Source: Sphagnum compactum (taxonomy: Eukaryota). Taken from it: a stretch of DNA of 64,000 nt. Both the position numbers and the translations under genes were made by a program. Numbering within the stretch: the first letter of the stretch is position 1; each line of letters opens with the position of its first letter. The notes beneath the pieces are model-generated. The model did not search any database and was not told the DNA's origin. It saw only the letters and a program-made list of their open reading frames with translations. Positions 2,970 through 50,044 of the stretch are shown piece after piece. The DNA lies in assembly GCA_965153455.1 (NCBI GenBank), contig OZ234493.1, positions 26,154,213-26,218,212 of the forward strand, in the 5' to 3' direction.

Positions 2970-5541
2970 ATGATGGCCTGCTGCTGTCTCGTACCCACCT
3001 CTACACTTGCATGCGTTGCTGCTCTTCCTCCTCCATCTCTTCTTCCCTCTTGCACAACATCACATCCTTGTGCACAATCACATTCACCCTTTCTGTTCAG
3101 GTCGCAAGCTTCGTTGCCTGCATCTGTTGCTTCTTCTTCTTCTTCTTCTGCATTTGTTGCTGCCCCGTACCGCAGTTGCTTTGTTGCAAATGGGATGAGG
3201 TCATGGAAGTTGTTGTGTAGAGATGTGAGTCAGCCATACAAGCAAGCTGCTGCTGCATCTTCTTTTGTGATGTCTGGTGGAGTGGTTGCCAAGGCTATGG
3301 CTGCCTCTACTGCTGTGGAGGAAGAGCGACCAGGGCGATTCTACTTCAACATAACGGGCTTTCCATTTCCATTAGGTCCATTCCTCGAAAGACGCACCAT
3401 CCGGAAAGAGGTAACACTGCCATCTTCTTTCTTTCTCATTGTTGCTGATTTCTTAACCATGTCAAGCTTGTGAGTTTTGTGAAGAAGCAGTTGTGGCCGC
3501 TGTGGTGGCAGTCATCTTTGTTCCAAGCAAATTCACAACCTCATTTCATGTTGCAACTGCAATTCTTCACCAGTTTGCTTTGCTCCCGGAGCAGGATTCC
3601 TTGAGCAGTCTTCTAGGGCGTAGAAATCTGCAGGCCCATCATGCAAGTAATTGTGTATTAGGGTTTTCAAATACCAGAGAAATCTGAAGAATTTTGTTGC
3701 AGGTTGTGTGAAGAATGTGTGTGTGATGTTGTTCTTGTTTTGTTCTTGCTGTGTTGATGACAATCATGGGTCGGGGCCGGGGGGGTTTATGGCAGGTTGA
3801 GAAGGGGCTGATATGGATGCTGGAGCAAGAGCAAGCTCTGGCATTTGGAAATGTGACCACAAACATACGCATGACAGTAATCAAGCTGAAATCAGGGGGT
3901 TTGTGGATCCATGCTCCAATAGCTCCAACAGATGAATGCATCCAGGTACTCCTCAAACTGGCATCGTCATCATGATGAAGAAAAGCATTCATTTTGCAGA
4001 TCATGCCGGCATGTCCATCTTATATGTCTCTTGCAATTATTCAGAGATTTGATTTCTCAGGGTTTGTGTAGTTTTGAGACTGAGGTTTTGTGGAAATGAT
4101 AATGGTGTTGTGGAGGATGACAGCTGCTGAATGAGTTGGAAGCTCCAGTTGAGTACATTGTACTGCCTACGTTTGCATATGAGCACAAAGTGTTTGTGGG
4201 ACCTTTCTCACGCAAGTTCCCTCGAGCTCATGTCTGGGTAGCTCCCCGTCAATGGAGCTGGCCTGTTGATCTTCCACTGCAGTTCTTTGGCATTTTTGGA
4301 GCAAAGATATTGCGCAATGATGATAAATCTGCTCCATGGGTTGATGAAATTGACTACAAAATTCTGAGTTGTTCAGTTGGTGAGAGCTTCGTTCTTTTCT
4401 ACTCATCTCCTCCTCTGTTGACTCCAGAAGATGATGATGATGGTGGTGGTGGTGGTGGTATATTGAGAACCTTTCAACACTGACAGATATCATTGTGAGA
4501 TTTCAGGTGTTGGCCCATATGTGGAGGTGGCATTCTTCCACAAGCAGTCAAAGATATTGCTGTTGACAGATGCGGTGATCTTTGTTCCAGAAAAGCCACC
4601 TGAAGTGGTGGGCAAGCAAGCGCTCCTGTCTGCAGCAAAAAATGGGTTGGCTGTAAAGCTTTTGAGTGCTGGAAAGGAAGTTTCGAATGATCCTATCATT
4701 GATGATGAAGCCACTCGTCAGAGGGGTAATAACATGTTCTTTTTTGTAATGGATGTTTGCACTTTTGTTGTCAATGAAGCTCCTCCCAAGCTTCTTCTTT
4801 CCCTTAGTCCTTCACTGCACAGTGGATTTGGTTGCCTTACTCATATTCTTCAGCAATTTGATGGCCCTGTATTCTGTCTTTTTGCAACAATTTGAAAGTA
4901 TGCACATGGAGATGATCAGAGTCTGTGACTTGTGCAGGATGGGAAAGAATGGTGTTACAAATTCTTTTTCTAGGTCCTTCAAACCTGCTGGAGCCCAAGC
5001 AAAGCTTTGCTCAAATGTCAAAGAAACTTATCGTCTCACCGATAGTCAAGACACTCGTGTTTGACAAAGTACCTGAAAAGGTTTGTTTCTTTTCTTTTTC
5101 TTCGAGCAAGATTTTGACTCGCATTGTTGGGTGACTTCCCTGACTACTTGCAACACCCTCAAATTGCTTCTTCTTTCTGGTTCTCTCTGCTACAAGCGAG
5201 ACATGCATTGAAGGAGCTGAAAATGTGGGAAACTGCAGGTGAATGCTTGGGTGCAAGAGATAACAAGAGAGTGGAAATTCAGTCGAATCATTCCTGCACA
5301 CTTTGCAGCACCAGTTGCTGCAGATGGTCGAGACTTAAGAGTGGCTTTTAGATTCCTAAACGACTTGTTGCCTGAGGAGGAGATGTGGGCATCGTCAGTT
5401 CTTTTGTCAATCTCTAGCCTTTTTAGTAGAGCTTCATCTGTGTTTCCAGCTGCAGATATGAAAACTCTCTCCTCATTAGATGAGTTCCTTGTGTCTGTGG
5501 GTGCTGTGAAAAAAACCATTTCAGGCAAGGGGAGACAATAG
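2970..5541 (+). CDS. DUF4336 family protein with a probable chloroplast transit peptide; 6 exons
   Basis: Exons 2970-3410, 3796-3945, 4124-4379, 4507-4725, 4938-5080, 5239-5541; all introns GT-AG with consistent phase. Motifs RFYFNITGFPFPLGP, TNIRMTVIKLKSGGLWIHAPIAPT, YIVLPTFAYEHK, EVAFFH, GWERMVLQILF, RIIPAHF. The N-terminus is Ser/Ala-rich. Confidence 0.92.
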
Positions 5542-14449: not shown

Positions 14450-15070
14450 GATACTCAACCATCACCATCTTTTTTAACTCTTTCACAGTTGTTGAAATTT
14501 TTTTAATGGCATCAGCAATTGTAGAAGAACCTGCATACAATTTTCTTCTTTTATTTTTCATTCTTTTGTTGGCTTTGCCTTGCACACCAGACAATTTACA
14601 AGCCTTAGTTCTTGGAGTGTTTGAACCTACAGATGGAGCATGAAACTCCTTTTCATTTCCATGACCAAAAACAAGAGCTTGCTATGATGGACTAAAGTGC
14701 TTTTGAGTGTCTAGTGTCACATCACCATCACTCACTTCAAAAATTTGAACCTTAGAATGTGAATGTAAATTTTGTACTCCCTTATCAATTGCATTGGGAA
14801 TGCCATTAATCTTGGCTATGGCTCCAAACATCCGATCAAATCTCTCAAACCATGGCCAATTAGAAAGGGATGCACCAGTCTCCTGAGTTTTCTTCTTTTC
14901 GGTCTCATACTTATCTTTTATCTTGTTCCACTTGTCATGCACTTGCTTCCAACTCCCATCCACTCTTAGAAAATGTGCATTCAACTGCTCTCTGTAACAT
15001 CTTTCCAATTTGTTTCTCGAAAAGGCTTCCAATTGTACTCCTAGAATTTCTTTTCACAAATATCTAGAAA
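14450..15070 (-). mobile_element. Myb/SANT-like (trihelix) ORF remnant, probably PIF/Harbinger ORF1-derived
   Basis: ORF 14682-15032 contains WKQVHDKWNKIKDKY...WPWFERFDRMFG, typical of trihelix/Myb_DNA-bind_4 domains. Truncated, with no transposase nearby. Confidence 0.6.
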
Positions 15071-16696: not shown

Positions 16697-19272
16697 TCAA
16701 TTTGTAGAAGTAACTTCGGAGTTTTCGACGTTTTTGATGAGGAGTTGCATGCCGAATTTGGGCCATAAATTGTTGCCGCCACGGCCTGGTGCATGGCAGT
16801 AGCTTGGCGACACAGAGAAGCTGAAACGCCGTAGTAGCATGGCCAAAAGCAGCTTCACAGTCATGCGCGCCAGGTTCCGGCCTAAGCAGATCCTGTTGCC
16901 GCCGCCGAAAGGCATGAAGTTGTTGAAGCTGTTGACACTATTGGCGGCGGCAGCAGTAGCAGCATTGAGGCCGTCAGCTGCACTGTTCTTCCCGTTTGTA
17001 TGAACATTCTTCACCTCCCAACGATCCGGCTTGAATAGATGGGCATCCTGGCCCCAAATCTCCTTGCTTTGATTCAGTACTGCCATGGGGATGATCACAT
17101 TGGTGCCTGGAGTTATGGTCACTGATCCAAGCTGATGTACCTCGGAAGCATCTCTGGTTATCGCCTGTACTGGTGCGTAGAGTCGTAGCGTTTCATTCAG
17201 TATCATGTCTATCTGTAATCAGTAGAAAAGCAGCTAGCGGAGTTAGGAAATCTTTCCATTAGGTTTGCTATATGATCACAATAGCTTTCCATTATATATG
17301 AACGACTGATGCATGCAGTTTGTATAAGAGAGAGTTTCTGTGATGGGATTTGTAGGTACCAATTTGAGGTTAGCGAGGTTGTCAACTTGGGGAGTATCTT
17401 CGGCGCCAAGGACTTCCTGCACTTCAGAGCGTGCACGTTGTTGCCAGTCGGGGTTCTGAGCTAAGAGCAAAAGTGACCACATCAAGAGTAGGGAGGTGGG
17501 GCTGTCGGTTGCTAAGAAGAAGACCGTGCATTCGTCTAGCACCTGCGACGCCGTCATGTTGGAGTTCCCTTCGTTCATTGCCTCCAACATCATGCCCAGT
17601 ACATCGCTCCCATACGCACTCTGCCTTGATCCAGCCTTGGCAATAATGCTGCTTCCCTTCAAGTCGTTCGCCACTTTCATCCTTGCACTCACGATGTTTT
17701 TGAGAACTTTTACCATAGCCCGTTTCTTTATCCAGAAGTTGATATTTGTTGCAGTTGGAAAGAAACTGGATAACAAGTAAGATACACACACAGCCATGGA
17801 AAAATTAGTTTTCTTTCCTATCGAGACCGGAACTCATGTACCGGCCTGCAGCTCCTAGATTTCACATTCTTCCTGCTTGGGGCACAAGTCTTGATGAAGG
17901 GTTCATGATCGATATTGCAATCTATGTAAACATGGTCCAGAAATAATTGTGCTCAAAACGTGGGGTCAGCTGCTGCAACAATGGGAAGTTAGTATGGTAC
18001 ACACCTATATCCGGGAATGAGGCGGGCATATCCGCGGATTCTATTCCCAATTACACCGGTCATGAAATTGACAGCGTCGTGAACGGCATAGATATCACCA
18101 CCCTCGATACCAGATGTAGAACCGAAGGTCGTCCTGATAATGATATCCAGCAGCGTTTCTGGCACATCCACGTCTACTGCAACTTCTGCTGCACCCTGTT
18201 TGATGTCTGCTGCGTTGTTGATCGCTTTCTGCCACTTGGTTACCAGATCATCTCCCCTTTCAACGATCTGGTGGAACAGACCCTGCATGCAGAATAATTC
18301 AATGCGCTGCAAAGTCAGCACGAGGAGGGCGCGCAATAGATCTATATTGCACTTGGGTACGTCGTAACAGTTATGAAGTCGAACAGTTATGAAGTCGAAC
18401 ACGTCTCTCATGAAATGTGTGATCTTGAAGGGTTTATAAGAAGTCCAAGGGATTCCAACTTGCCTTAAGAAAGGTGTGACGAAAAGCTGGGCTCATGATT
18501 TGGTTCTTTTGCTTCCAATTGCCTCCTTCGGCCGTAAGGATACTACCATGACCCGCGATAGCAGAAACAGCTTCGCTGGCAAGAACGCTCTTTTTGTAGT
18601 ATCCCGCCTTTGACAGCAACACGTCCTTCGCCAACTTTGCATCGGCAAGTATCATCCTTGTCATGGAGCCTTGCTCGAAAACAGAAATTTTTCCTGAAAC
18701 CCCAGAACGTAATTTACGGAGCTGCTTAGTTAGCGCAGAAGAGTAGAAAGCACTCCGCGTCTTCTCTTTCGAACCTGCTAATTATTGTTTGCGAAACAGA
18801 CTGGCCAACATTGAACTCATGACTTCCTTCGAATTCACAAGAAAGTTTACTCGAAGGATTGATACATATATACAGTAGCGTAAGTAGTGTGATCGAAAAT
18901 CTTACCATACTTCTCACTGAAGACGAATAGTTCCGTTCCCACTCGTCCTGCCGGCGATTCAGAGATCTGACCACCGAGCTTCGGCACCCCTCTACGTAGC
19001 TCCCGAATCTCGGGCAAGTTGCCGATGAAAGGTCTGAAGACGGGGCCGCTGATACCTTGCTTCTCGTAGAATCTCCGTTTGCTGTAAGGTTTCCACAACA
19101 TCCAATAGAATATATTCACCATCGATACAACCAGAACCGTACTGCATACCGCTGTTACAAAAGATCCCCACTCATCATCCACAATATCCCTACTCGAAAT
19201 CCTCAGAAGAATGTCCTGATCAGCCTCATGAGGAGGAAGCCAACTCCTGCTGGACTCATTTAGTAATGCCAT
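16697..19272 (-). CDS. Cytochrome P450, CYP72 clan; 5 exons
   Basis: Exons 19272-18906, 18693-18464 (GC donor), 18282-18005, 17765-17360, 17212-16697. N-terminal TM segment, QGISGP..PFIGN, PDWQQRARSEV, ETLRLY (ExxR), PDRW and the heme motif FGGGNRICLG are present. Intron positions match the CYP72-clan pattern. Confidence 0.92.
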
Positions 19273-19911
19273 CACGCTCGTTAATCGATCACTCGAGATT
19301 GAAAACGTCGCAAAAAAAGGCAAAAAAAAAAGAGAAAAAAACTCTGTGGGACTCTCACAGTCTCTCTCCTCTAGTAGTGCATGAGGTAGTTGATTTATAA
19401 TATGGACAACAACAACAACAACAGGTGACAAAAAAGAGATAGATCTTCAATAAGTGATCAATCGCGAATGTCCTGACTCTACCCAACTACAAACACAACA
19501 AGCTTTGATTTCTAATAATAATTTCGTCGATAGAAGAATGTGCGTCATGAACTTCAGAATTTGTTGTTGTGCAGGAGTTTGATGGATTATTGTATGGATC
19601 CGGGGTTTAGGCGTGATCTATTTATACTCTTGTTATCCTCTTCTTGTGCTCGGCTGAATGAAACTGCGAACTTACTGAGAACGAACTGCTAGCCTTGGCG
19701 GCGCGTGGCAAGTGGCAGTTTTGTCGTACTCCTCGAGATCTGTCGATTTTAGCTTTGCCGCATTTGGCTTCTTCTGTTGGGATCTCAGGCAACTTCCTGA
19801 ATGGACATGTGTCAGGCAATTTTCCTCCTCCACGGACATGCCAGCTGAGCGGAGGATCATCATCCAAGCAAGTAAGCAAGAAGCCTCCCCGCGGAGTCCC
19901 GTGGGGCCTTG

Positions 19912-34100: not shown

Positions 34101-34830
34101 ATTCAAACAAATTACAAAAAGGGGTTACGAAGGAAAATTCAATTGAATGCATTCAAACTTGGGCCAATGACATAAGGTACATTAGTGTTTAATGAGTTTT
34201 TATCATAATTTTAAACAAATATTAAGATATCATGTATATAAAAATGAATAAACATTAGAGTTGCACAATATTATTAGTCATGTGTCAGTACTTAATATGT
34301 TTTAATGATGTACATAAAAATAATAAATTACATGTGTATTGAACATAAACATTATTACTAACATATATTTAGAATTTCCAAAACTTTATTTTGAAATTAA
34401 ATTTTAATATTTATATGCAAGAAAAAAACCATTCATTTATACAAATAAAATTTACATGAAAGTTAATGTTATTATAATTTTAAATAAATATTAAAATCAA
34501 AGTTGCATACTAATTGTTTAACCTAGTTGAAATAAATAGTTACAAACAAGACTACATTTGATTTGTCCTTTAATACATTTTATCATCCATATATGTGTGT
34601 TGTTGGTGTCATTAAAATAATTGAACATTCATCAATGTTTTGACTATATGCCAATTAAAGAACCTTAGATGCCAAAAATATTTTTAAAATGGCACTTTTG
34701 TGAAAACATGTTTCACATTGTTTATCAACATAGTTGAGTGTTCAACTTGGAGAGACATTGTTGATGTTGAGAATATTCAGTAATTGACCAACTAGTTGAA
34801 AAATGTTTTCGACTATATACCAATATAGTA
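31130..34830. mobile_element. ~3.7-kb non-coding CACTA/EnSpm-like insertion within the LRR array
   Basis: The left junction GAAGGTAGTT|CACTAATAAAA and right junction TAGTA|ATTGGAACAC interrupt one LRR unit. CAACTAG/CTAGTTG subterminal motifs occur near both ends. The right TIR and TSD are imperfect. Confidence 0.55.
33311..34185 (+). mobile_element. Nested Helitron-like element made of two ~440-bp tandem units
   Basis: A|TCTATT 5' end and TTAG|T 3' end; AATGAGTAGGG..GCA..ACTTGGTTT occurs twice (~33415, ~33850). Removing it restores a unit homologous to 33001-33060. Confidence 0.55.
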
Positions 34831-34839
34831 ATTGGAACA

Positions 34840-36800
34840 CTTTCATAAATAAAGCTTTCGGAGTGCATTTGATTGCCAATAGATGAAGGTAGTTCTTCCA
34901 AATTGGAACACCCTTTTCAATAAAGCTCTTGGAGTGCATTCAATTAGCAGCAGATGAAGGTAGTTCTTTCAAGTTGGAACACCCCTACAAATTAAGCGTT
35001 TGGAGTGCATTCAATTGGCCAATAGATGAAGGTAGTTCTTTCAAGTTGAAACACCCTTCTACATCAAACATTTCGAGTGCATTCAATTGGCCAATAGATG
35101 AAGGTAGTTCTTTCAAGTTGGAACACCTTCCTAAATAAAGCTTTTGGAGTGCATTCAATTGGCCAATAGATGAAGGTAGTTCTTTCAAGTTGGAACACTC
35201 GCACAAATCAAGCTCTTCGAGTGCATTCAATTGGCCAATAGATGAAGGTAGTTCTTTCAAGTTGGAACACCCCCACAACTGAAGCTCTTGGAGTGCATTC
35301 AATTGGCCAATAGATGAAGGTAGTTCTTTCAAGTTTGAACACCTTTCTAAATCAAGCTTTTCGAGTGCATTCAATTGGCCAATAGATGAAGGTAGTTCTT
35401 TCAAGTTGCAACACCCCGACAAATCAAGCTGTTGGAGTGCATTCAATTGGCCAATAGATGAAGGTAGTTCTTTCAAGTTGGAACACCCTCCTAAATAAAG
35501 CTTTTGGAGTGCATTCAATTGGCCAATAGATGAAGGTAGTCCTTTCAAGTACGAACACCACCACAAATAAAACTCTTGGAGTGCATTCAATTGGCCAATA
35601 GATGAAGGTAGTTCTTTCAAGTTGGAACACCCTTCTAAATAAAGCTTTTGGAGTGCATTCAATTGGCCAATAGATGAAGGTAGTTCTTTCAAGTTGGAAC
35701 ACCCTACCAAATAAAGCTTTTGAAGTGCATTCAACTGGCCAATAGATGAAGGTAGTTCTTTCAAGTTGGAACACCCTTCTAAATAAAGCTTTTGGAGTGC
35801 ATTCAATTGGCCAATAAATGAAGGTAGTTCTTTCAAGTTGGAACACCCTTCTAAATAAAGCTCTTGGAGTGCATTCAATTGGCCAATAGATGAAGGTAGT
35901 TCTTTCAAGTTGGAACACCCCCACAACTGAAGCTCTTGGAGTGCATTCAATTGGCCAATAGATGAAGGTAGTTCTTTCAAGTTGGAACACCCTTCTAAAT
36001 CAAGCTTTTGAAGTGCATTCAATTGGCCAATAGATGAAGGGAGTTTTTTCAACTTGGAACACCCTATCAAATAAAGCTTTTGAAGTGCATTCAACTGGCC
36101 AATAGATGAAGGTAGTTCTTTCAAGTTGGAACACCCTCCTAAATAAAGCTTTTGGAGTGCATTCAATTGGCCAATAGATGAAGGTAGTTCTTTCAAGTTG
36201 AAACACCCTCCTAAATCAAGCTGTTGGAGTGCATTCAATTGGCCAATAGATGAAGGTAGTTCTTTCAAGTTGGAACACCCCCACAAATGAAGCTCTTGGA
36301 GTGCATTCAATTGGCCAATAGATGAAGGTAGTTCTTTCAAATTGGAACACCCCCACAAATGAAGCTCTTGGAGTGCATTCAATTGGCCAATAGATGAAGG
36401 TAGTTCTTTCAAGTTCGAACACCTTTCTAAATCAAGCTTTTCGAGTGCATTCAATTGGCCAATAGATGAAGGTAGTTCTTTCAAGTTGGAACACCCTTTT
36501 AAATCAAGCTCTTTGAGTGCATTCAATTGGCCAATAGATGAAGGTAGTTCTATCAAATTGGAACACCCCCACAAATAAAGCCCTTGGAGTGCATTCAATT
36601 GGCCAATAGATGAAGGTAGTTTTTTCAACTTAGACCACCCTGACAAATGGAGCTCTTGGAGTGCATTCAATTGGCCAATAGATGAAGGTAGTTCCTTCAA
36701 ATTGGAACACCTTGACAAATCAAGCTCTTGTAGTGCATTCAATCGGCCAATAGATGAAGGTAATTTTTTCAAGGTGGAACACCCTGACAAATCAAATACT
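34840..36800 (-). repeat. Coding tandem array of 27 x 72-bp LRR units (25 before the stop codon, 2 after it)
   Basis: The GATGAAGGTAGTT motif recurs with an exact 72-bp period from ~34885 to ~36757. Confidence 0.97.
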
Positions 36801-39800
36801 TGTAATTGTAAACAATCAAACAAATTACTTGGCAACTTTCGAATCATGCAATTTTTGAGGCACAACCACTTAACATTATTCAAATTTCGCCCTTGAATGC
36901 AATTTTCCACAATAGTTGGTGAAGCTTCTGTTAAGTCAACCAACCTAAGGTTACGAAATCCTTTGGAGCCGATTTGGGACAATGTAGTCAAATTGACACA
37001 TTTTTTCAATGAGATGCCTTCTAAAATTTCCACCACCTATCACATGAAATGAAAACAAAAGGATTATCAATATAAAAAAAACATTTCATCTTATTATTAA
37101 TTTTTATTAAAAAACATTATTCATAAAATCAAAATTCAAAGTTAAAACATTTGTTTTTGGACATTAAAAAAATTCATAAAAAATCGAAATAAAATTATAA
37201 GATTGAAATAATATGGTGACAACCTGATTGTTTGGTAAAACAAAATTTGGTTCATTTGCTTTCCATATAAATCGATTCATAATTGGAAGTTCCATTGCAA
37301 TATTTTGACCCATGTCTCGTAATTGTTCATGTATGTACAAGATTCCACCTTCTCCGCATTGGATTAAAGATCTATGTTGTAAATTTTGCAATGCAAATTT
37401 TGGGTGTAAATAATCTCCATTCCACGCTCGACAAATTGTCCTTATTTTCAAACCACCAAAGAAACAAGCAATATCCAAAAACATCCTTTGATGTTCCTTA
37501 TCCAAATACTCATAAGATATCTTCAATTTACTCCAAAGTTTTTCATTATCATTGCCCCCCGTGAAACTTTGCCCACTTTTCAATTTGTTCAATGCGCCTT
37601 CCCAGATTTCCAATTCTTTAGTATCGCACAAAAAAGAACCCAATACTTTAAGACTTAAAGGGAGCCCTCCACAAGCTTTTATAATCTCCTTACATATATC
37701 TTTGAAATATTTTGTTGGAACATGATTTGCATTACCGAATGCATGGAACATAAAAAGTTCCATTGCTTGCTCTTTCTCCAAAGATTTCATGATCATTTTT
37801 CCATCTTCACTTACGTGAGATTTTAGATTTTGCCAATTTCGACAATTCACAAGTATTCTACTTTTAGAAGCTGCATTCCTAGCAGCCTTATCAATGAAAA
37901 TTGGCAAGGACAGGTTCTCCACTTTACCAACATCATCCACCACCACTAACACTTTTTTTGATATCATACATTGCCTAATTTTGTCAAAGTCTTCTTTGTT
38001 CACATTTTCATCCTTGGATATTTTTTTGTCACACAAATCATGTAGGAGTTGTTTTATGACATCATTGATATTGTCCTTTGAATTCACATCCTCCAAAAAA
38101 CTAGATTTGTCATATTGGTTGTGGAACAAATGATAGAATTTTTTGCTCAAAGTGGTTTTCCCAATTCCCCCCATTCCAACCAAACCAACAATAGATTCCT
38201 TTTGTAACAAGATGTTTATATCTTTTGCTTTGTCAATCAACGCCACCTCATGACATGGCAAAGGTGGAAGTAATATATTTTTCTGTCAAATTTCACAAAA
38301 CAAAGGTCATTTATATGTTATTTTTCTTACTTGATAACCAATATATATGACATTGCATATGCGATACACATCAAATGTGCTATGACCTAAAATGTATAAA
38401 ATAACATGAACATATATGAAGTCAAAAGACTTAGATTTGATGTTTTTACCTCCATACATATTCTCAAACATTGTAACAATAAATAATAGCTTGGATGATT
38501 TTTGTTTGGTGGCTTGCAAATTGTCAAATGATTAGCATCTTCGATTCTATAATGGTTGTTGTTTGACAATTGAATAGCTGAGGAATATGGCACTAAAATT
38601 CCCTGTATGAGCAAAAGATTAAGTTAATGGAACTCATTTACTTGTTTGTTCAACTATGCTTGAACTTATAAGTAACACAGTAAATCCAAATGGTGGTGGA
38701 AACTATAGCTTAATAACTATTGATGTTTCAATAACAATGAAATATTTTGTGTGAAAGTAATTTCCTTCAACCTTTTGGCAAGCAAATCACAAAGTTATTG
38801 GTTTTTGATCTCATTAATCTTACATGTTTTAATGATGATATGATTTTCATGACAAATATTTGTATGGAATTGATTTGATGAAGGCGAAATTTAGAACCTA
38901 TTTCATGATGTTTGAAGTCAATCAAATTGTCTTTCCATCAATAGTATTTCATGAAACAAAGTTCATAAAACACATGACCCATTCACCACATTATTGTATT
39001 AAGAAGTATTGAGTACATGATCCCACACAAATTTTGACGATACAAAAAATGTTCAATTAATGAACTTAGTTGGATAACTTTCGATGTGGTGAAATGAAAA
39101 TCTTACCCAATTCTCGTCGAGTGGTAATCCTTCACCAAATGCATAAATGTTGACATCTTCAGGAATAGCATTTTTAAAATCTGTTGAAAGGTGTTCCATT
39201 TGTGGGTTGAAAGATTTTAAACTTTTTAAAAAACCAGATTGGGTTGCACACTTGTTCAATGTGTTGATTTGTTGATGTTGCCAAATGAAATAATTTGATA
39301 AATATTGGGTACCGCCAACATGTGGTACACCGTAAAATATTACACCTTTCACATTGTTCAAAAATGTCTTACAACATTTGTGGACTTCATCATCCAAAGT
39401 ATTTTTTGACCTTTGATGTACATGTTTGTGAGCTTCAACCACCAAGCTTTTGAGTATAAGACCTCCAAAACTATAAGCAATTAATGCCACCGGTCCATCC
39501 CAAAGCGATTGATAACTACAAAATATTCAACAATGCATAAAATTCCATTATCAACATTCTATTAACATGTACAAATTTGTCCTATTATACTTGGGGACAA
39601 TTTTCCAATTCACACATGACCTAAACCATAAGTCCGTAATTGATTTGCTTGTCATTTGTCATTTATCAATTCCATGAATTTACCTAAAAAATGTGACAAC
39701 CATGTTTTGGTAAAACAATTATATTGCTCAAGTATGTAGGCGTTTACATTCTTGTGTTAATGCACGATTCATCTTCTGTGTTACCTTGGAAATATTGTTA

Positions 39801-40820
39801 AAACAAAAAAAAATTTAAAAAAAAAAAAGATACATTCTTTTTGGAATTTTTTTTTGCAATGAAATGGATGCAAATTTTACACATGTATTAATAGAACTTA
39901 ATTTAATTCAATTCCATTACCAAAGATGAAACTCCAAAAAGCTCGACCTAAAACTTGCCATCAAAACCAAACTAGTTGTACCATGAACTTATAATATGAA
40001 CATAGACTTTGTTATTATCTTCAAACAAGAACATTTGCACATAAGCCCCATTTTATGTTCTCCTACATGAATTTAACAATTCAAATAAATTGAAACTTGT
40101 TGGTGTGTATCACAATACTAATACACATGAACAATTAACTCCTGCACAACATTTAAGAAATTCTAAAGATCTAAACAATTTTCTTTAATATACATAAGGA
40201 GAAGTAATCAATGTGTCCTTAAATAGAAGAGATTGTCACACCTTGAATTTGTAACCAAACTTTGAATGAGGTTTTTGCCAATTTCAATCACATCATTGTG
40301 AACACTTGTCACAATTTTAGAATCATAAGACAATGATAAAATTCGAACATTATTGTTCAAGTCTTCGGGTAGCCACTTTTCTGGCCAACATATGCACTCT
40401 TCTCTATTGTTGGTGGGGCATGTTGTCCATGTTTCCTTCCATTCATCATTTGTGCCAAAAGCAATCCCATGAAAAAAAACGATGGTCAAGTTTGGATTAT
40501 TGGTATTACAAGTGGGATTTAAATCATGCACTACATATTTCTGCAAAGAAAATGAAAAAGAGTCAACACAATTGTTCAAACATCTTTTGAAAATTATTTG
40601 ACTATACAATAAATTGGAGACATGCAATATACAAAATATAGTAGTTAGATAAAAGAAATAATTAATTGAAAATATTAAGTATAACAAGAAGACAATAATA
40701 GATGAATTGGAGAATGCCAAATGTATCTTGCACGACTAACAAATGAAGATCATTCACCTGCGTCAAAGTTTCAAAACATAGTTCAATTAAGTAAATACTG
40801 TTACGTAGTAGATCGAACAT
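34985..40820 (-). CDS. Alpha/beta-hydrolase-NB-ARC-LRR (HNL-type) NLR immune receptor
   Basis: Exons 40820-40758 (tentative first exon), 40540-40242, 39515-39107, 38602-38450, 38282-37224, 37036-34985; all GT-AG and in frame. Hydrolase: IVFFHG, CWPEKWLPEDL, RILSLSYDS, AYSFGG, FYGVPH, DANHLTICKP. NB-ARC: GMGGIGKT, LVVVDDV, GLPL, IHEQLRDMG. Followed by 25 complete 24-aa LRRs. Confidence 0.92.
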
Positions 40821-41304
40821 ATGTCCATCAATAAAGGTTAATTCTCAGAATTGGATTCTTTCAAGTTTGGGTCGATTAACTAAGCCATCTAGTTTGGTTC
40901 ATTTGTATTTCATGACATTTTCCCCGACATTTCGGCCACTAAGGCCTCCCACCCCTAAGAAATTGGGACACAAACCCAATAAGAATGTCCAAGAGCAGTT
41001 TAATAATTTGCCTTTGGTTGTTGGATTAAGATTACACATTGAACTTAACTCATAATCTATAATGAAAGTTCCAATCCTTACAAGTTCAATATATTCTTAG
41101 TCAATGCCAATTGACGAATTTCCCTTTCACCGATCCTATTTGTTATAGCAAGTGAGTCGCTGGCCTAATGTAAGAGGCTATAATGATGACTCCATTTCCT
41201 ACTGTTTAAAACATCATTTCATATCGTTTTTATCTAAACAAACAAACTGGAAAGTAGGCAAAGTGAAAATGTATGGCAAGGAAGCTTGTAAATGATTGAG
41301 GACA

Positions 41305-41373
41305 TTCAGTTACCCTAGTGGCTAAAGGGTATGGTTGCCAAGCTGTTGGCTAGGAGTTCAAATCTGAACTAGA
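41305..41373 (+). other. tRNA-like sequence (pseudo-tRNA or SINE head)
   Basis: A-box-like TACCCTAGTGG (41311) and B-box GTTCAAATC (41356) at tRNA spacing, with TTGCCAA in the anticodon position. Stems pair poorly. Confidence 0.3.
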
Positions 41374-41489
41374 CCTCCTTCTCCTGATGCTTTGTCAGGA
41401 CAATAAGCTAAGGTTGTTGTATGGGTCACGGAAAATTGTCAACACCCAAACAAAATTAAAAAAGCAAAGAAAAATCAAACTTAAACATG

Positions 41490-41790
41490 TAACTTGGGAA
41501 AGCCGAAGAAAAAATTGTGCAAAGAAACTTCATCATAAGAGTAAGAAAAAGCACCACATTGCCGTGCCCTCCAAAGCTTGAAGGAGCATTTTCAGCAGGG
41601 ACCAAAGGTGTCTCAATTGCAGCAGGTATCTGCACAACATCTTTACATGGGAAAGCCCAAGAAAAAACTGTGCAAAGAAAGCTCATTATAAAATTAAGAA
41701 GAAGCATCACATTGCTGTGCCATCCAGAGCTTGAAGGAGGATTTTCAGCGGGGACCGAAGGTGTCTCGGTCGCAGCAGGGATCCGCCCAA
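41490..41790. repeat. Diverged tandem duplication of ~150 bp within a coding-like segment
   Basis: The - strand peptide repeats as IPAATETPSVPAENPPSSSGWHSNV / IPAAIETPLVPAENAPSSFGGHGNV. Confidence 0.85.
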
Positions 41791-43004
41791 CATCTCTCTT
41801 TCTTTTTGGTGGCCCTTGTGAAAGATCAACTCCTTTTCCCTTGAGGCCATATGAATTTCCCATATTTCGCACTACTGAAATTCCTTTTGCTCACTGCTGT
41901 GATAAATGTTTTTCTCTTAACCTTTTGCTCTCATAAAACCTGCTACAAATCCTTTGCCATCCCAATAGCATACACAAGGTATGATGGGTGTCCCTCACAT
42001 CACAGATTCCCGCAAGCTAAGCTGATCTTTCCACTAGATCTCCCCAAAAAACATCAACCCCTTTCCTCTTCACGATCTCCCTGGAATTCCCACTCTCTTT
42101 TCTTACTCCTTTCTCGACTTTTCTCCCGGATGTTTCTTCTTCTTCTTCATTTTCTCCTCCCCCAGAAACTTCTAGAACGGTTTTGCCGGGACTCTTCAGA
42201 CTGTAGCATACGCGCTTTACCGATTTCTTGGCCCATGCTTATCATCATGACTTTTGTTCACATCCACACACCAACCTTTCTTTTACTAAAAAACCAGAGC
42301 TGAAAAAAAGCTAAGTCATCAATTTAAAAAGTGTTAAAATCAAATGCTTTTTGAGATTCTCAATAGCCAAAATTCAACCAAATTCAAAGAAAAATCGTCA
42401 GAGTTCCACACATGAGTTTCAAGTAGGTAGCCAATAAAAGAGAAATATGTTAAAAAATTTCGAATGCCATATTTAGCTCATAGCCAAATCTGACTAAATC
42501 TTCCTACCGATGATAGCCACTTGGGCTATATCTCAAAACTGACCCAACAAATTAGTGATCCACACGTTTCCTGCTGTTGGCTGGCTGATTTCAGCCAGTG
42601 CATTATTGAAGCGCTCTGCCAGAGCTCATGTTGCAGGCAATGCATGATTCATTGGGCCTTGGGCGAACCGGCCAGGCCAGGGTGAATTGACCTCCACATT
42701 GGGATCACTGTAAAAATCCCCAAAACCCATTCAAATGGCCATATTAGGCCCCAAAATTTATAGATTAGGACTTTGGGACCCTAATTTAGTCGGTCTAGGG
42801 AAATGATATTTATAAATATTTAGAACATTTACGAGCAATTTAAATGGGCTTTGTTTGCGGGGTCAAGTTGCCTTGGTTGGGTGAACCTGGCCTACATTAG
42901 AACCAACGTGAAAATCCCAAAGTTTTTGGGGGCAGCTTCAAAACATTATAGATACATGTAGTGTCCTTAGACAAAATCAGGGCCTCTGAATCTACTACAA
43001 CCTG

Positions 43005-46264: not shown

Positions 46265-47251
46265 TTGGAGGGGAAACCTTTCATGTCAAGTGATTGATCA
46301 ATTTCTTTATAAGAAAAAAATTGTTGGGTGATCATGGAAACAACTAAAGGTTGCTTGAATTCTTTTAACCTTTTTTGGTTTCTCCCCCTTGTATCACCCC
46401 CTATTATTATTGTTCACATCAACAATTCAATTTAGTACATGATAATTGCTAGTGCAAAACAACACATATAGAGTTTGAATACTATAGCTATACGTTTCTT
46501 TAGATTTGAAACATGAACTTTGTAAATTATGAATGTGGTGTTTTTAGTCTTGATGATTGATGATGGTGGCTTAAAAACATGTCATTTCTAAGAATATTTG
46601 AAAAGGTGGTGGAGGTTTTCTTCTTTGAAATGTGCCAAGGTTTCTCTTTATTAGCTTTCACCATTATTTTTTCACTTCCTTTCTTTTGAGAAGATTACTA
46701 GTTTTTTCTTTGATTATCTTTTTGACTCCCAATTCTAAAACATGTTATTAACCGACAAAAAACCTTAAACCCCTTTTTAAAAAATGTTGTTTTGATTATA
46801 GATTATGGTTGAATTAATTAAAAATTAAAAATTGAAGGAATTTCTTGGGTTTACATTATTTTCTATGGTTCTTTTCTTATTATATCAAGTGTTTGTTGTG
46901 AAAATGTAATTGATGAATTCTTATTGCACCTAATTTGTGGTGTCCTTAATTGTTTTTAAATGTGGTTGTATAGATATATGATGGCCAATGCTCTAGAAAA
47001 AAGATTAACCTCCATGAATTATGGCCATCATTTGGCTATGGTAGACCAAATCAAGGATTGGCAACAAGGGATTCAACCCTATGTTGTCAACAACCGCATC
47101 CCCTACTACAATCTGCAACACAATCAATTTCTTCCATGGATTTTTCACCAACTTTTATGGGCCATTGAACATCCAAAATCCTCATATCCAAATTTTGCTT
47201 CAACACATGTTGGGGTAGGAGAAGGACTAAGAATTGTCATTGACCAAAGCA

Positions 47252-50044
47252 ATGGACATAATAAAAATACCAAATTTATCATTTGAAAATAAACCATCAA
47301 TAGAAATTGGTAACAATGAAACACATTGTGTTTTGGATTTAAAATGTGAAGGCAACATTTCCTTCAACAATGAACACCCAAATAATGCAAACATTCAAAT
47401 GCAACACGTTTGTATGGTAGAGAAGAAAGGCAAGTCAAAATTTGGAATTGGACTGCCAAATCTTGTGACATGTAAAAAAACTCCTAGAAGGAGGGAAATT
47501 CTAAATAATGATCAAAGGAAATTGAGACCAAGCTCCTCTTCTTATTCAAAGCAACACCAAAAATATTTACTACAACTTTGTTGTCATCAAAATATCCATA
47601 GAAATGGTTTGCCCGGATTGTTTTTTCAAGCACATTTAATATCAAGACAACAAAATTTGACACAAATTGAGTTTGTATTGAGGCAACAATACATACAAAC
47701 AAGGATTCTTGCAAGCTTTTGTAAGCACAATATGAATAGTTTTAGTGTTCTTCACAAAAGATGGAACATCAATGTTCGGGATTATATGAAAACCAAAGTA
47801 CTTGGGCATAGAATTGTGTCAAGTTGGTTGACATCTACACAAAACATTAAGCAAATTCCTCATATCATTCAAAAATATAAGCAATGGTTGTTGCTTAGGT
47901 TTCCATCAATGACACAGGATCTTATGAAGAAAAGCAATAATGGAAAGTGCAAAAGTTATGTTAGATTGCAAGGCCTAAAACATGAAATTGAAGCATATGG
48001 ATGTGTTGTAATTGATGATGCAAAGAATGAAGGAACAAGCTATCATCTCATGAGTCGAAAATTGCAACTTTTCCATCGAAATGCTCAAGTTACCAACAAC
48101 TTGCAAGTTAAAGAGGTAGGTTCAAGTTCGTTGAATTTAATTGTGAAGAAAAAAAAAGCAAGAGAAACAATTATTGCTCAAATGAACTCTATGATCAACA
48201 ATGGTAGTTACAATATTACAATGTATAAAGAGTTGTGTAAAGGAGTGTTGAAAAGTAAAATGACTTTTGCACAAAAAGAAGTGGTGCCAAACTACAACAA
48301 GGACTTCATTGTCACATCTTCATTGAATGAGAATTTGATGTTGATAATTGCCTTGAAAAAGAAAAAGAAGAAGAAGCAATATCATCTTGGTAATCAATTT
48401 TTGAAAGGCAAAGACCTACAATTGGTTATGAAGCATAATAATTCTAATAATTATTTGCGCAAGATGGATGTTATTCCAAGACAACATGTTTTTGTTGGAC
48501 ATTTTACTGCATTTTCATCATTTTTGGGGTTTAGGTTAGGACAAGAGGCACATCGTGTGAGATATGAAAGCAATGCAGGTGGGACTTCCACCATATCCGA
48601 GGTTTGAGATTTTAACCCAACCTATTAAATTCCTATAGTTGTAGATCCTTTCAATTTCAAGTTGTATACATATGCAATCTTGACAATGAGAAAACAAAAT
48701 GTTTAAGAAAGAGGTCTTGTCATTTGCTAGTTGAATGATTGATTTGAGTTTGTGGACAAAAGTTTTTTTTGTTAGTTTAACCATGAACTATTCATTGTTT
48801 GTGGTGGTAGTCATTGTCCGTGGAGTATTTTGTAAGAAGGTTTGAAGCCAAGGATGTTGTCACTGAGATGGAGGTTGAGTATTGTTCGAGGAATTGGAAG
48901 AAGGTGGATTACATTTGCACATTGTATGGTCAACGAGTTGGAGTATCAGTTACACGAGCAATGTTTTATCCTAACCCAAAGGGCTTCTCCTCCGACGTAG
49001 CCTATCGACTTCTTCACAAGAAGCTTTTTGGTTTGGTAAAATGCCACAAAATCTCTTTCCATACACAATGCCTCCCATTTTGATCATTCTCTCTATGGAT
49101 GAAAAAAAGACATCTCCATTCTCAAAAGGCATGGAGATGTCCATTAATTGGCTCAAGCACACTAGGTTAGCACGAATAGTTTTGGCTCATAACCTACACT
49201 CACACCGGTTACGTAGTCCATAATCCATTACAAAGACCTTAAAGGTTAGTGTATATAACCTATCCTCAATATACACCAAAGACGACTCTAACATGTTTTC
49301 AATCCAAGTGAATAACATATTTTCACAACAAGAGCTCTAGTAATGGTTTATGTTGAAGGCTTGTTCATGAATCCTATTGCATCCATTTATTTTTCTTTGA
49401 TGACAGATTATGGCAAGGCAAGGTGTGAAGGAAAGACATAGCTTTTTACAATGCATTTTGCATGTATGGTGTGAAACCATACAGATAGCAACAATTGTTG
49501 AAGCTGCATACATAGGTAAAAAGATATGTATACCCCCAAGACCCTCTTCATTTGACTACTCATGTAACCTAGGGTTAGCTTCTACATTGAGAAAATGAAT
49601 AATTATTTTTTTTCAAAAAAACAATTCATTTTGCAGCTTTAAGATTAAGTACTATGGTTTTTTTGTGTTTTAAAATAGTCTAATAATATTTTCAGACAGT
49701 TAGTCTCAGTATCCATTTTGGAGCTTGCCATGAATTTGATGGGTTTCATCGACCTTAGTGTCATGATTTCACCAAAAAAAAAAGAAAAAAAAACACTTTA
49801 CGTCGCTCTAAAATAATATGTAGACAAATGTATATATAACCTTGGTTACATTTTCACAAGTTTTGTTTTCGTAGTTGGGCAAGCAAGCTAACAATTTCCT
49901 TGAATTTATATCATTCTAGAGGTTTCAAGGGATTTGGACATAACCGATGATGTAATCCCAGTGCTGACCGTGGCAGAAGGTTTACATGCTCGACCGATAT
50001 TCTACGAACATTGTTTATTTACATCATTTGACCCTCATACTTAA
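47252..50044 (+). CDS. Protein with a long unrecognised N-terminus and a C-terminal AAC4-like (putative PD-(D/E)XK-fold) domain; 4 exons, start uncertain
   Basis: Exons ~47252-48601, 48811-49035, 49407-49515, 49920-50044 splice in frame (GT-AG). Spliced product: EAHRVRYESNAGGTSTISE|SLSVEYF..TEMEVEY..WKKVDYIC..RVGVSVTRAM..LLHKKLFGL|IMARQGV..ILHVWC..|..DDVIPVLTVA..IFYE. Confidence 0.75.

Follow-up and report, generated by a model that had tools for sequence, protein, structure and literature searches.

Among the nucleotide-binding leucine-rich repeat proteins (NLRs) of bryophytes there is a class headed by a hydrolase domain (Hyd-NLRs, or HNLs), for which Xue et al. 2012 is reportedly the source that others cite. 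The available text of Chia et al. 2024 (PMC11218826) records Hyd-NLRs in non-flowering plants, Sphagnum included, places most bryophyte hydrolase NLRs in a cluster with bryophyte TIR-NLRs (TNLs), and describes hypersensitive response (HR)-like cell death and ion leakage in Nicotiana benthamiana caused by two isolated Marchantia Hyd domains, adding that Hyd biochemistry remains to be assessed. In the sections of Chia and Carella 2023 that deal with them (PMC10952240), the hydrolase head is commonest in Marchantia, Sphagnum and Ceratodon and its function is called unknown; a further source, in its accessible part, terms Hyd-NLRs bryophyte-specific and not found in ferns (PMC12512272). Plant immunity research has yet to settle how Hyd-NLRs signal; reviews published between 2023 (PMC10952240) and January 2026 (PMC12856790), in the passages available from them, list Hyd-NLRs only as 'atypical', and our literature search returned no paper giving a biochemical mechanism for plant Hyd-NLRs. 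In fungi, according to the corresponding passages of Dyrka et al. 2014 (PMC4986451), sesB-like lipase domains related to human SERAC1 head about one-fifth of annotated NLRs, and a sesB-related fold in a bryophyte NLR was already noted there. Here we describe a hydrolase-headed NLR gene of Sphagnum compactum on the minus strand of a 64,000-nucleotide stretch of DNA (the window; assembly GCA_965153455.1, contig OZ234493.1, positions 26,154,213 to 26,218,212, numbered below from its first letter). The gene is a further member of the published Hyd-NLR class, already described in Sphagnum itself, and is almost certainly expressed and equipped with an intact catalytic triad. Our analysis adds counts showing that NLR-fused Sphagnum domains keep the triad, Glu279 as the likely catalytic acid, profile homology to the heads of fungal NLRs and a corrected gene model. 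A preliminary description of this DNA had noted that hydrolase-NBS-LRR genes are reported from bryophytes and that their output is unresolved, in agreement with the available text of these sources (PMC11218826, PMC10952240, PMC12856790).

Stop-to-stop open reading frames (ORFs) and the reverse-complement sequence gave exons 2-6, and RNA joints exon 1, of a gene encoding 1374 residues without an internal stop, with GT-AG at every intron and all exons joined in frame, as follows.

Exon 1, 41711-41863, minus strand: residues 1-51, with a Met-Gly start and a basic stretch, predicted to be disordered; placed by RNA joints.
Exon 2, 40242-40540, minus strand: residues 52-151, with the first hydrolase strands and the FFHG oxyanion-loop motif at 40466-40477.
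Exon 3, 39107-39515, minus strand: residues 151-287, with the nucleophile elbow AYSFGG, the VPH motif, cap helices and Glu279.
Sites in exon 3, minus strand: Ser166 at 39470-39472, VPH at 39320-39328 and Glu279 at 39131-39133 (end of strand beta7).
Exon 4, 38450-38602, minus strand: residues 288-338, with strand beta8, DANHLTICKP, His312 at 38528-38530 and a helix linking to the NB-ARC.
Exon 5, 37224-38282, minus strand: residues 339-691, NB-ARC and ROQ1-like winged helix.
Motifs in exon 5, minus strand: P-loop at 38151-38177, Walker B at 37929-37949, GLPL at 37653-37670 and the MHD-like IHE at 37326-37334.
Exon 6, 34985-37036, minus strand: residues 692-1374 and the stop, with an irregular start followed by 25 regular 24-residue leucine-rich repeat (LRR) units.

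The protein thus consists of a disordered leader (residues 1-51), which is an N-terminal peptide common to paralogues, a DUF676/SesB-like alpha/beta-hydrolase domain (52-338), a TNL-type NB-ARC with a winged helix (339-691) and 25 near-identical LRR units (692-1374). The preliminary description had joined three hydrolase exons in frame to the NB-ARC, and exons 2 to 4 indeed carry the AG acceptors and GT donors that this requires; the motifs that it quoted, FFHG, AYSFGG, FYGVPH and DANHLTICKP, all stand in the translation letter for letter.

RNA from one stranded poly-A sequencing run (X24, raw reads) and from three metatranscriptome contig sets (X1-X3, short pieces of a kind that cannot demonstrate expression of the exact copy) was placed on 34800-42100. 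X24 contributed 4645 reads, 1178 of them at least 99% alike and 3467 of them 95-99% alike to the window, and in nearly every read pair the first mate lay on the plus strand, which under the usual stranded protocol indicates minus-strand RNA. Depth was 63-227 in the bins holding exons 2-5 (132-227 in exon 2) and 1.6-4.6 in three all-intron bins and the bin with the ATG at 40820. The joint between exons 2 and 3 (39515|40242) was spanned by 180 reads with 64 starts, and that between exon 4 and the NB-ARC (38282|38450) by 97 reads with 45 starts, while 40540/40539 was linked to 41711, 41708 and 41707 by 13, 11 and 8 reads, respectively. The joints 39515|40242 and 38282|38450 show CT..AC ends on the plus strand, equivalent to GT..AG on the gene strand. 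The joint between exons 3 and 4 was absent from the 15 RNA joint rows listed out of 59; it is supported indirectly by an X1 contig whose loose end at 39106 agrees, judged by eye, with the first letters of exon 4 at 25 of 28 positions, and by the annotation of all annotated relatives, in which this join is identical. The 97 stranded poly-A reads over 38282|38450, many of them from a nearly identical copy, lie on the very hydrolase-NB-ARC joint for which the preliminary description had asked for complementary DNA, and together with the Pfam matches and the exon joins they bear out its central claim of an NLR with an alpha/beta-hydrolase instead of a TIR or CC domain in one transcript.

Behind the hydrolase the protein resembles a TNL. 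Exon 5 matched the Pfam families NB-ARC (4.6e-35) and WHD_ROQ1 (1.3e-12), and the closest solved NLR was the TIR-NLR ROQ1 (7jlv; 4e-40, 141.5 bits), alike in NB-ARC and winged helix, both of which the match covers; the next TNL scored 74.3 bits and the best non-TIR NLR 64.3 bits. Searches with exon 1 (E≤0.01) and with exons 2-4 (E≤1) returned no TIR family. The NB-ARC, winged helix and LRR are the only TNL-like parts, and the protein falls outside the TIR-NLRs: a hydrolase stands where ROQ1 has its TIR, which means that the output must be something other than TNL-type NADase chemistry. Exon 6 matched LRR_14 (3.4e-137) and the RPS4B-like family LRR_13, and lies in a tandem repeat (34832-36792) whose period of 72 recurs 27.3 times with 89% matches. 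Within these very uniform units, entropy at the x positions of LxxLxLxx was 1.9-2.6 bits at three and 1.1 at the fourth, and at most 0.9 elsewhere, so that the LRR called hypervariable in the preliminary description is so in the sense of variable contact positions. The array stops at a TAG within a repeat unit, with two degenerate units beyond it (34832-34987). The closest relative, P0001, has the same stop position and fewer LRR units, which indicates that unit number varies between copies or assemblies.

The fold of the N-terminal domain was approached by profile and by structure prediction. DUF676, the nearest Pfam family, matched seven of the eight Sphagnum sequences that make up our profile A1 (best E 9.3e-6), and PF05057 is listed in the precomputed annotations of four Sphagnum relatives; exons 1, 2 and 4 gave no significant Pfam match, the sole match of exon 2 having an E of 0.074. 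A1 found no sequence-level match among PDB chains even at E≤10; run against 1.84 billion representatives, it retrieved 2034 proteins at E≤1e-3, of which 546 reached ≤1e-10 and 51 reached ≤1e-30. As structural proxy we used P0004, which is 85.7% identical to the window domain and shares its numbering. Its AlphaFold2 model from an alignment of 69 diverse sequences (A3) had a predicted local distance difference test score (pLDDT) of 84.9 and a predicted template modelling score (pTM) of 0.83, with only residues 1-49 disordered (pLDDT <50); a run with only eight close Sphagnum sequences, with a pLDDT of 49.3, was replaced by it. Searched against 48,161 representative chains with VIA-align, the model matched 429 chains at Z≥8, led by the Legionella pneumophila phospholipase PlaB (6zth; Z 19.3, root-mean-square deviation 3.0, 222 residues aligned) and the Bacillus licheniformis lipase BlEst2 (6wpx/6wpy; Z 18.2), with other alpha/beta-hydrolases reaching a plateau near Z 16. 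The top Foldseek matches were lipases and esterases, with BlEst2 best (E 2.1e-7). The predicted fold is with certainty that of an alpha/beta-hydrolase. PlaB and BlEst2, the closest solved structures, share its core at 14-16% sequence identity, and their margin over hundreds of hydrolases is too narrow to assign a substrate; the model does no more than suggest a lipid.

In the P0004 model, Ser166 sits between strand 160-165 and helix 168-184, forming a nucleophile elbow, His75-Gly76 directly follows strand 69-74 as the oxyanion loop, Glu279 closes strand 273-279 at the usual place of the acid, and His312 comes after strand 304-307, ahead of the linker helix toward the NB-ARC (residues 324-333). 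A Ser166-Glu279-His312 triad and the FFHG oxyanion loop are thus predicted at the canonical positions of the fold. Asp309 of the DANH motif is conserved in Sphagnum and not in liverworts, and we therefore took Glu279 as the catalytic acid, which it most likely is; the preliminary description had named no acid. Counting rows with a residue at the position, the Sphagnum proteins retain Ser in 76 of 80, Glu in 79 of 79, His in 66 of 66 and the oxyanion His in 74 of 74, in line with the earlier statement that the nucleophile Ser and the motif His are kept; in the other representatives Ser is found in 95 of 116, Glu in 98 of 112 and His in 78 of 81. When only rows covering all three positions were counted, S-E-H was intact in 48 of 50 Sphagnum NB-ARC-fused domains, the remaining two being C-E-H and T-E-H, and in 13 of 19 NB-ARC-fused representatives of other taxa, with five more C-E-H; it was missing in 13 of 46 standalone or other representatives. 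The nucleophile position holds Cys in 13 of the 116 non-Sphagnum rows, including the five NB-ARC-fused representatives, and such members may represent a Cys-His-Glu form of this chemistry.

A search with exon 3 retrieved 82 database proteins at E≤0.01 (best 4.3e-88), 72 of them named Sphagnum, under at least eight species labels, and 10 unnamed JGI records, which speaks against a chance resemblance. P0001 (1138 residues, labelled Sphagnum compactum) is identical in exon 3 (100%), and between residues 52 and 700 only 2 of 649 positions set it apart from the window; residue 294 is Ser in the window and Ala in the other compared proteins. Named relatives of the hydrolase came from Marchantia, Calypogeia, Riccia, Ceratodon, Sphagnum, Volvox and one ascomycete. 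The elbow reads A/G-Y-S-F-G-G and the His motif D-A-N-H in Sphagnum, and mostly G-H-S-x-G-G and A-D-H in liverworts, Ceratodon, Volvox and fungi. Bryophyte Hyd-NLRs from Marchantia, Sphagnum and Ceratodon are built of the same three parts, and their hydrolase domain is homologous, with NB-ARC-LRR proteins of Calypogeia and Ceratodon reached by the Sphagnum profile at E 1e-20 to 1e-28; the NB-ARC of the window is TIR-NLR-like, as published for most, and we see no categorical difference. Nineteen of 43 well-covered representatives carried an NB-ARC, and others were fused to a protein kinase, metacaspase, B-lectin or Arm repeats or were free-standing proteins of about 300-400 residues, the latter found in Marchantia, Ceratodon, Calypogeia and Riccia. 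With such varied fusion partners the hydrolase domain behaves as a mobile module. Fusions to metacaspase (Peptidase_C14), B-lectin and Armadillo repeats were seen in P0115, P0139, P0208 and P0198, which are liverwort and unnamed records.

A quick LG+G4 tree of 115 hydrolase domains placed all Sphagnum rows in one clade (66 rows; Shimodaira-Hasegawa-like approximate likelihood ratio test (SH-aLRT) 98) and the named liverwort and Ceratodon rows, together with unnamed ones, in a second (43 rows, SH-aLRT 93), with NLR-fused and free forms intermixed in both. The window was the sister of P0001 within a shallow, recent radiation in which dozens of Sphagnum paralogues stand on short branches; because many other branches are long, we draw no order of events from the tree. 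Some kinase-fused Sphagnum paralogues depart from the common pattern: P0045, P0054 and P0034 (partial) leave the domain after the exon-3 equivalent and lack the His motif, and P0126 and P0365 have Lys in place of Ser and a motif without His. These may be dead-scaffold versions or mis-annotated models.

The link to fungi was found at profile level. The ascomycete protein P0238 retrieved 785 longer relatives at E≤1e-5, of which the best 120 were mostly NACHT-WD40 NLRs, some labelled HET-E-1-related, GPI inositol-deacylase or SERAC1. The Sphagnum-only profile of eight sequences matched 92 of these 120 fungal proteins at E≤1e-3 scaled to 1.84 billion sequences (best 3.5e-13, 65.5 bits), and 113 of the 115 reported matches were N-terminal. 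Leads from a protein atlas point the same way, with DUF676 clusters in Streptophyta and Ascomycota, one of them with a NACHT-associated domain. Fungal SesB-like NLRs resemble the window protein in having a homologous alpha/beta-hydrolase ahead of a STAND NTPase, but theirs are NACHT NTPases with WD40, ANK or TPR, whereas the window has a plant NB-ARC and LRRs. Animal SERAC1 proper differs from the window protein, which has an NLR architecture, and the connection to it comes from the labels of P0233 (Marchantia), P0357 and P0358 (fungal) and from the available text of PMC4986451. With DUF676 in seven of eight relatives and the 92 fungal matches, the grouping with SERAC1-labelled and SesB-like proteins, as proposed in the preliminary description, is supported. 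Neurospora crassa PLP-1, a fungal NLR whose N-terminal patatin phospholipase contributes to cell death according to the passages available from PMC10952240 and PMC11218826, is alike in being an NLR with an N-terminal lipase, but its patatin has an unrelated fold with a Ser-Asp dyad.

We lean, by a little, towards an immune output that depends on catalysis, namely esterase or lipase action after NB-ARC-driven oligomerisation, because the triad is conserved in the NLR-fused clade, the domain is N-terminal, its structural neighbours are lipase-like and the Marchantia domains cause cell death. Lipid hydrolysis activated by oligomerisation, as the preliminary description had it, is a reasonable conjecture. 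With the variable residues of its beta-strand face the LRR would sense a ligand, either derived from a pathogen or modified self; the NB-ARC would then exchange nucleotide and oligomerise, probably into a tetramer as in ROQ1; the hydrolase domains, once clustered, could work as serine esterases or lipases whose most likely substrate is a membrane lipid or another acyl ester; and membrane damage or a lipid-derived signal may lead to cell death and immunity. A more specific version, which we offer tentatively and hold to be rather doubtful, is a TNL-type chassis in which a membrane-directed serine lipase replaces TIR NAD cleavage, with N-myristoylation at the Met-Gly start, a tetramer, cleavage of a membrane phospholipid or acyl ester, and execution that requires catalysis yet is independent of EDS1, NADase products and CC channels. 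As a corollary of this membrane-lipase proposal, the same fold would serve the kinase-fused paralogues without the His segment, or without both Ser and His, as a dead scaffold. A lipid reaction that depends on catalysis, should that prove to be the output, would add a third biochemical class to the outputs of plant NLRs, next to CC channels and TIR NADases, and the fungal SesB-like NLRs would be its counterpart. As Marchantia members in a tractable model are already at hand, the present gene does not newly open this question to testing.

Several points weigh against a catalytic reading, or against this copy as its example. The hydrolase domain of the window, being divided over three exons, was scanned by Pfam exon by exon, and exon 3 matched DUF676 (PF05057) at E 0.0079 with 16.2 bits, below the curated cut-off of 20.3, under which the 16.8 bits of P0004 fall as well. 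The triad was placed from the order of secondary-structure elements, a common fold does not by itself show function, and the margin of PlaB over generic alpha/beta-hydrolases is about 3 Z, which makes it weak evidence for a lipid substrate. In 21 of the 116 non-Sphagnum rows another residue takes the place of the nucleophile Ser (Cys 13, Gly 3, Asp 2, Asn 2, Lys 1), suggesting that some members work without Ser or are non-functional. The EDS1-family lipase-like proteins are a plant precedent of triad-independent signalling. The Marchantia cell-death test, as set out in the available text of PMC11218826, apparently included no catalytic mutants. The nucleophile replacements and the EDS1 precedent lend themselves to the alternative in which the hydrolase fold is a non-catalytic scaffold or a small-molecule receptor, comparable to the EDS1 family or to hormone receptors, that recruits partners or binds a ligand after oligomerisation; EDS1-like and lipid-binding roles are raised in the accessible part of the New Phytologist review (PMC10952240), the strigolactone receptor ShHTL5 stands at rank 45 among the Foldseek matches, and the standalone or other representatives that lack S-E-H (13 of 46) fit it too. 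We nevertheless consider such a scaffold unlikely here, given S-E-H in 48 of 50 NB-ARC-fused domains of the window's own clade, the invariant oxyanion His and His312, a pattern expected of purifying selection on catalysis, and the fact that most nucleophile changes elsewhere are to Cys, still a capable nucleophile.

The free-standing relatives suggest another possibility, that the hydrolase is an integrated decoy or sensor copying a free-standing host hydrolase attacked by effectors, with the NLR reporting its modification. Such relatives occur in the same lineages, the tree intersperses them with NLR-fused forms, and the domain is mobile, being fused also to kinase, metacaspase, B-lectin and Arm-repeat partners. 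A decoy would, however, occupy the N-terminus, the usual site of NLR signalling domains, in a protein with no other candidate signalling domain among the Pfam matches of exons 1, 2 and 4; the fusion class is large and recently expanded, as is typical of signalling domains rather than integrated decoys; and isolated Marchantia Hyd domains trigger cell death by themselves, according to the available text of PMC11218826. We judge this explanation improbable. There remains the question of the copy itself. The 3467 of 4645 reads that are 1-5% off the window indicate that an allele or paralogue almost identical to it is the source of much of the RNA; the majority of reads disagree with the window at many positions, and at 38584, where 65 of 84 differ and 19 carry the window base, the proportion implies that the exact copy may be a minor transcript in the sample. 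This could mean that the gene is a decaying or silent paralogue and that the RNA comes from near-identical relatives, to which the stop inside a repeat unit with degenerate units beyond, and Ser294 in place of Ala, would also conform. On the other side, the frame is open over 1374 codons, the splice sites are canonical, the catalytic and NB-ARC motifs are intact, 1178 reads are at least 99% alike, and P0001 uses the same stop and hardly differs over residues 52-700, which leaves a silent copy only a slim chance.

The 5' end of the gene had to be moved. The preliminary description ended at 40820, at an ATG that proved to be intronic, and the true first exon lies outside the interval that it gave. 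Two features bear on this.

ATG-led stretch, 40758-40820, minus strand: ends in GT and coincides with the upper limit of the interval given earlier; non-exonic.
Tandem duplication, 41495-41795, minus strand: 153 bp in 2.0 copies (85% matches), spanning the end of exon 1 and the first part of intron 1.

The ATG-led stretch was rejected as exon 1, since its bin (40656-40899) had a depth of 4.64 versus 132-227 in exon 2, and none of the 15 RNA joint rows listed out of 59 uses it. The reads that link 40540 to 41711 instead define the first exon as 41711-41863. The duplication produces a second look-alike donor site (tandem-repeat scan; ORF 41456-41890), and the public model of P0001 runs through both copies, gaining about 50 residues. 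RNA joints take the first donor, 41711. Read-through of both copies, as in the P0001 annotation, has no clean supporting joint; the only rows that would enter the second copy, at 40541|41573, each consist of one contig (in X2 and in X3), and 17 letters between the sides stay unmatched.

The window protein starts with Met-Gly (codons 1-2, 41858-41863) in a context fitting what we take to be the PROSITE N-myristoylation pattern. The pattern also fits 22 of 74 Sphagnum and 12 of 70 other proteins with an N-terminal hydrolase, several of which have Cys beside Gly2. Gly2 itself is found in 26 of the 74 and 12 of the 70, many paralogues having Ala, Arg, Glu or Val, and these counts rule out N-myristoylation as a family-wide trait; at most it would concern a subset including the window. 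Upstream of the start codon, 41876-42100 had a depth of 448, the highest of 34800-42100, running past the edge of the region; this peak could be a long 5' untranslated region, a repeat or a neighbouring transcript.

Elsewhere in the window, a Pfam scan of ORFs of at least 110 residues detected no second NLR. A cytochrome P450 gene lies at 16697-19446 on the minus strand (p450, 1.4e-30 and 2.1e-15 on two exons), a gene for a DUF4336 protein at 4121-4895 on the plus strand (2.9e-31) and a Myb/SANT-like ORF at 14682-15053 on the minus strand (2.6e-6). A Lys/Asn-rich open frame of 458 codons at 47231-48607 on the plus strand matched no Pfam family at E≤0.01 and may belong to a transposable element.

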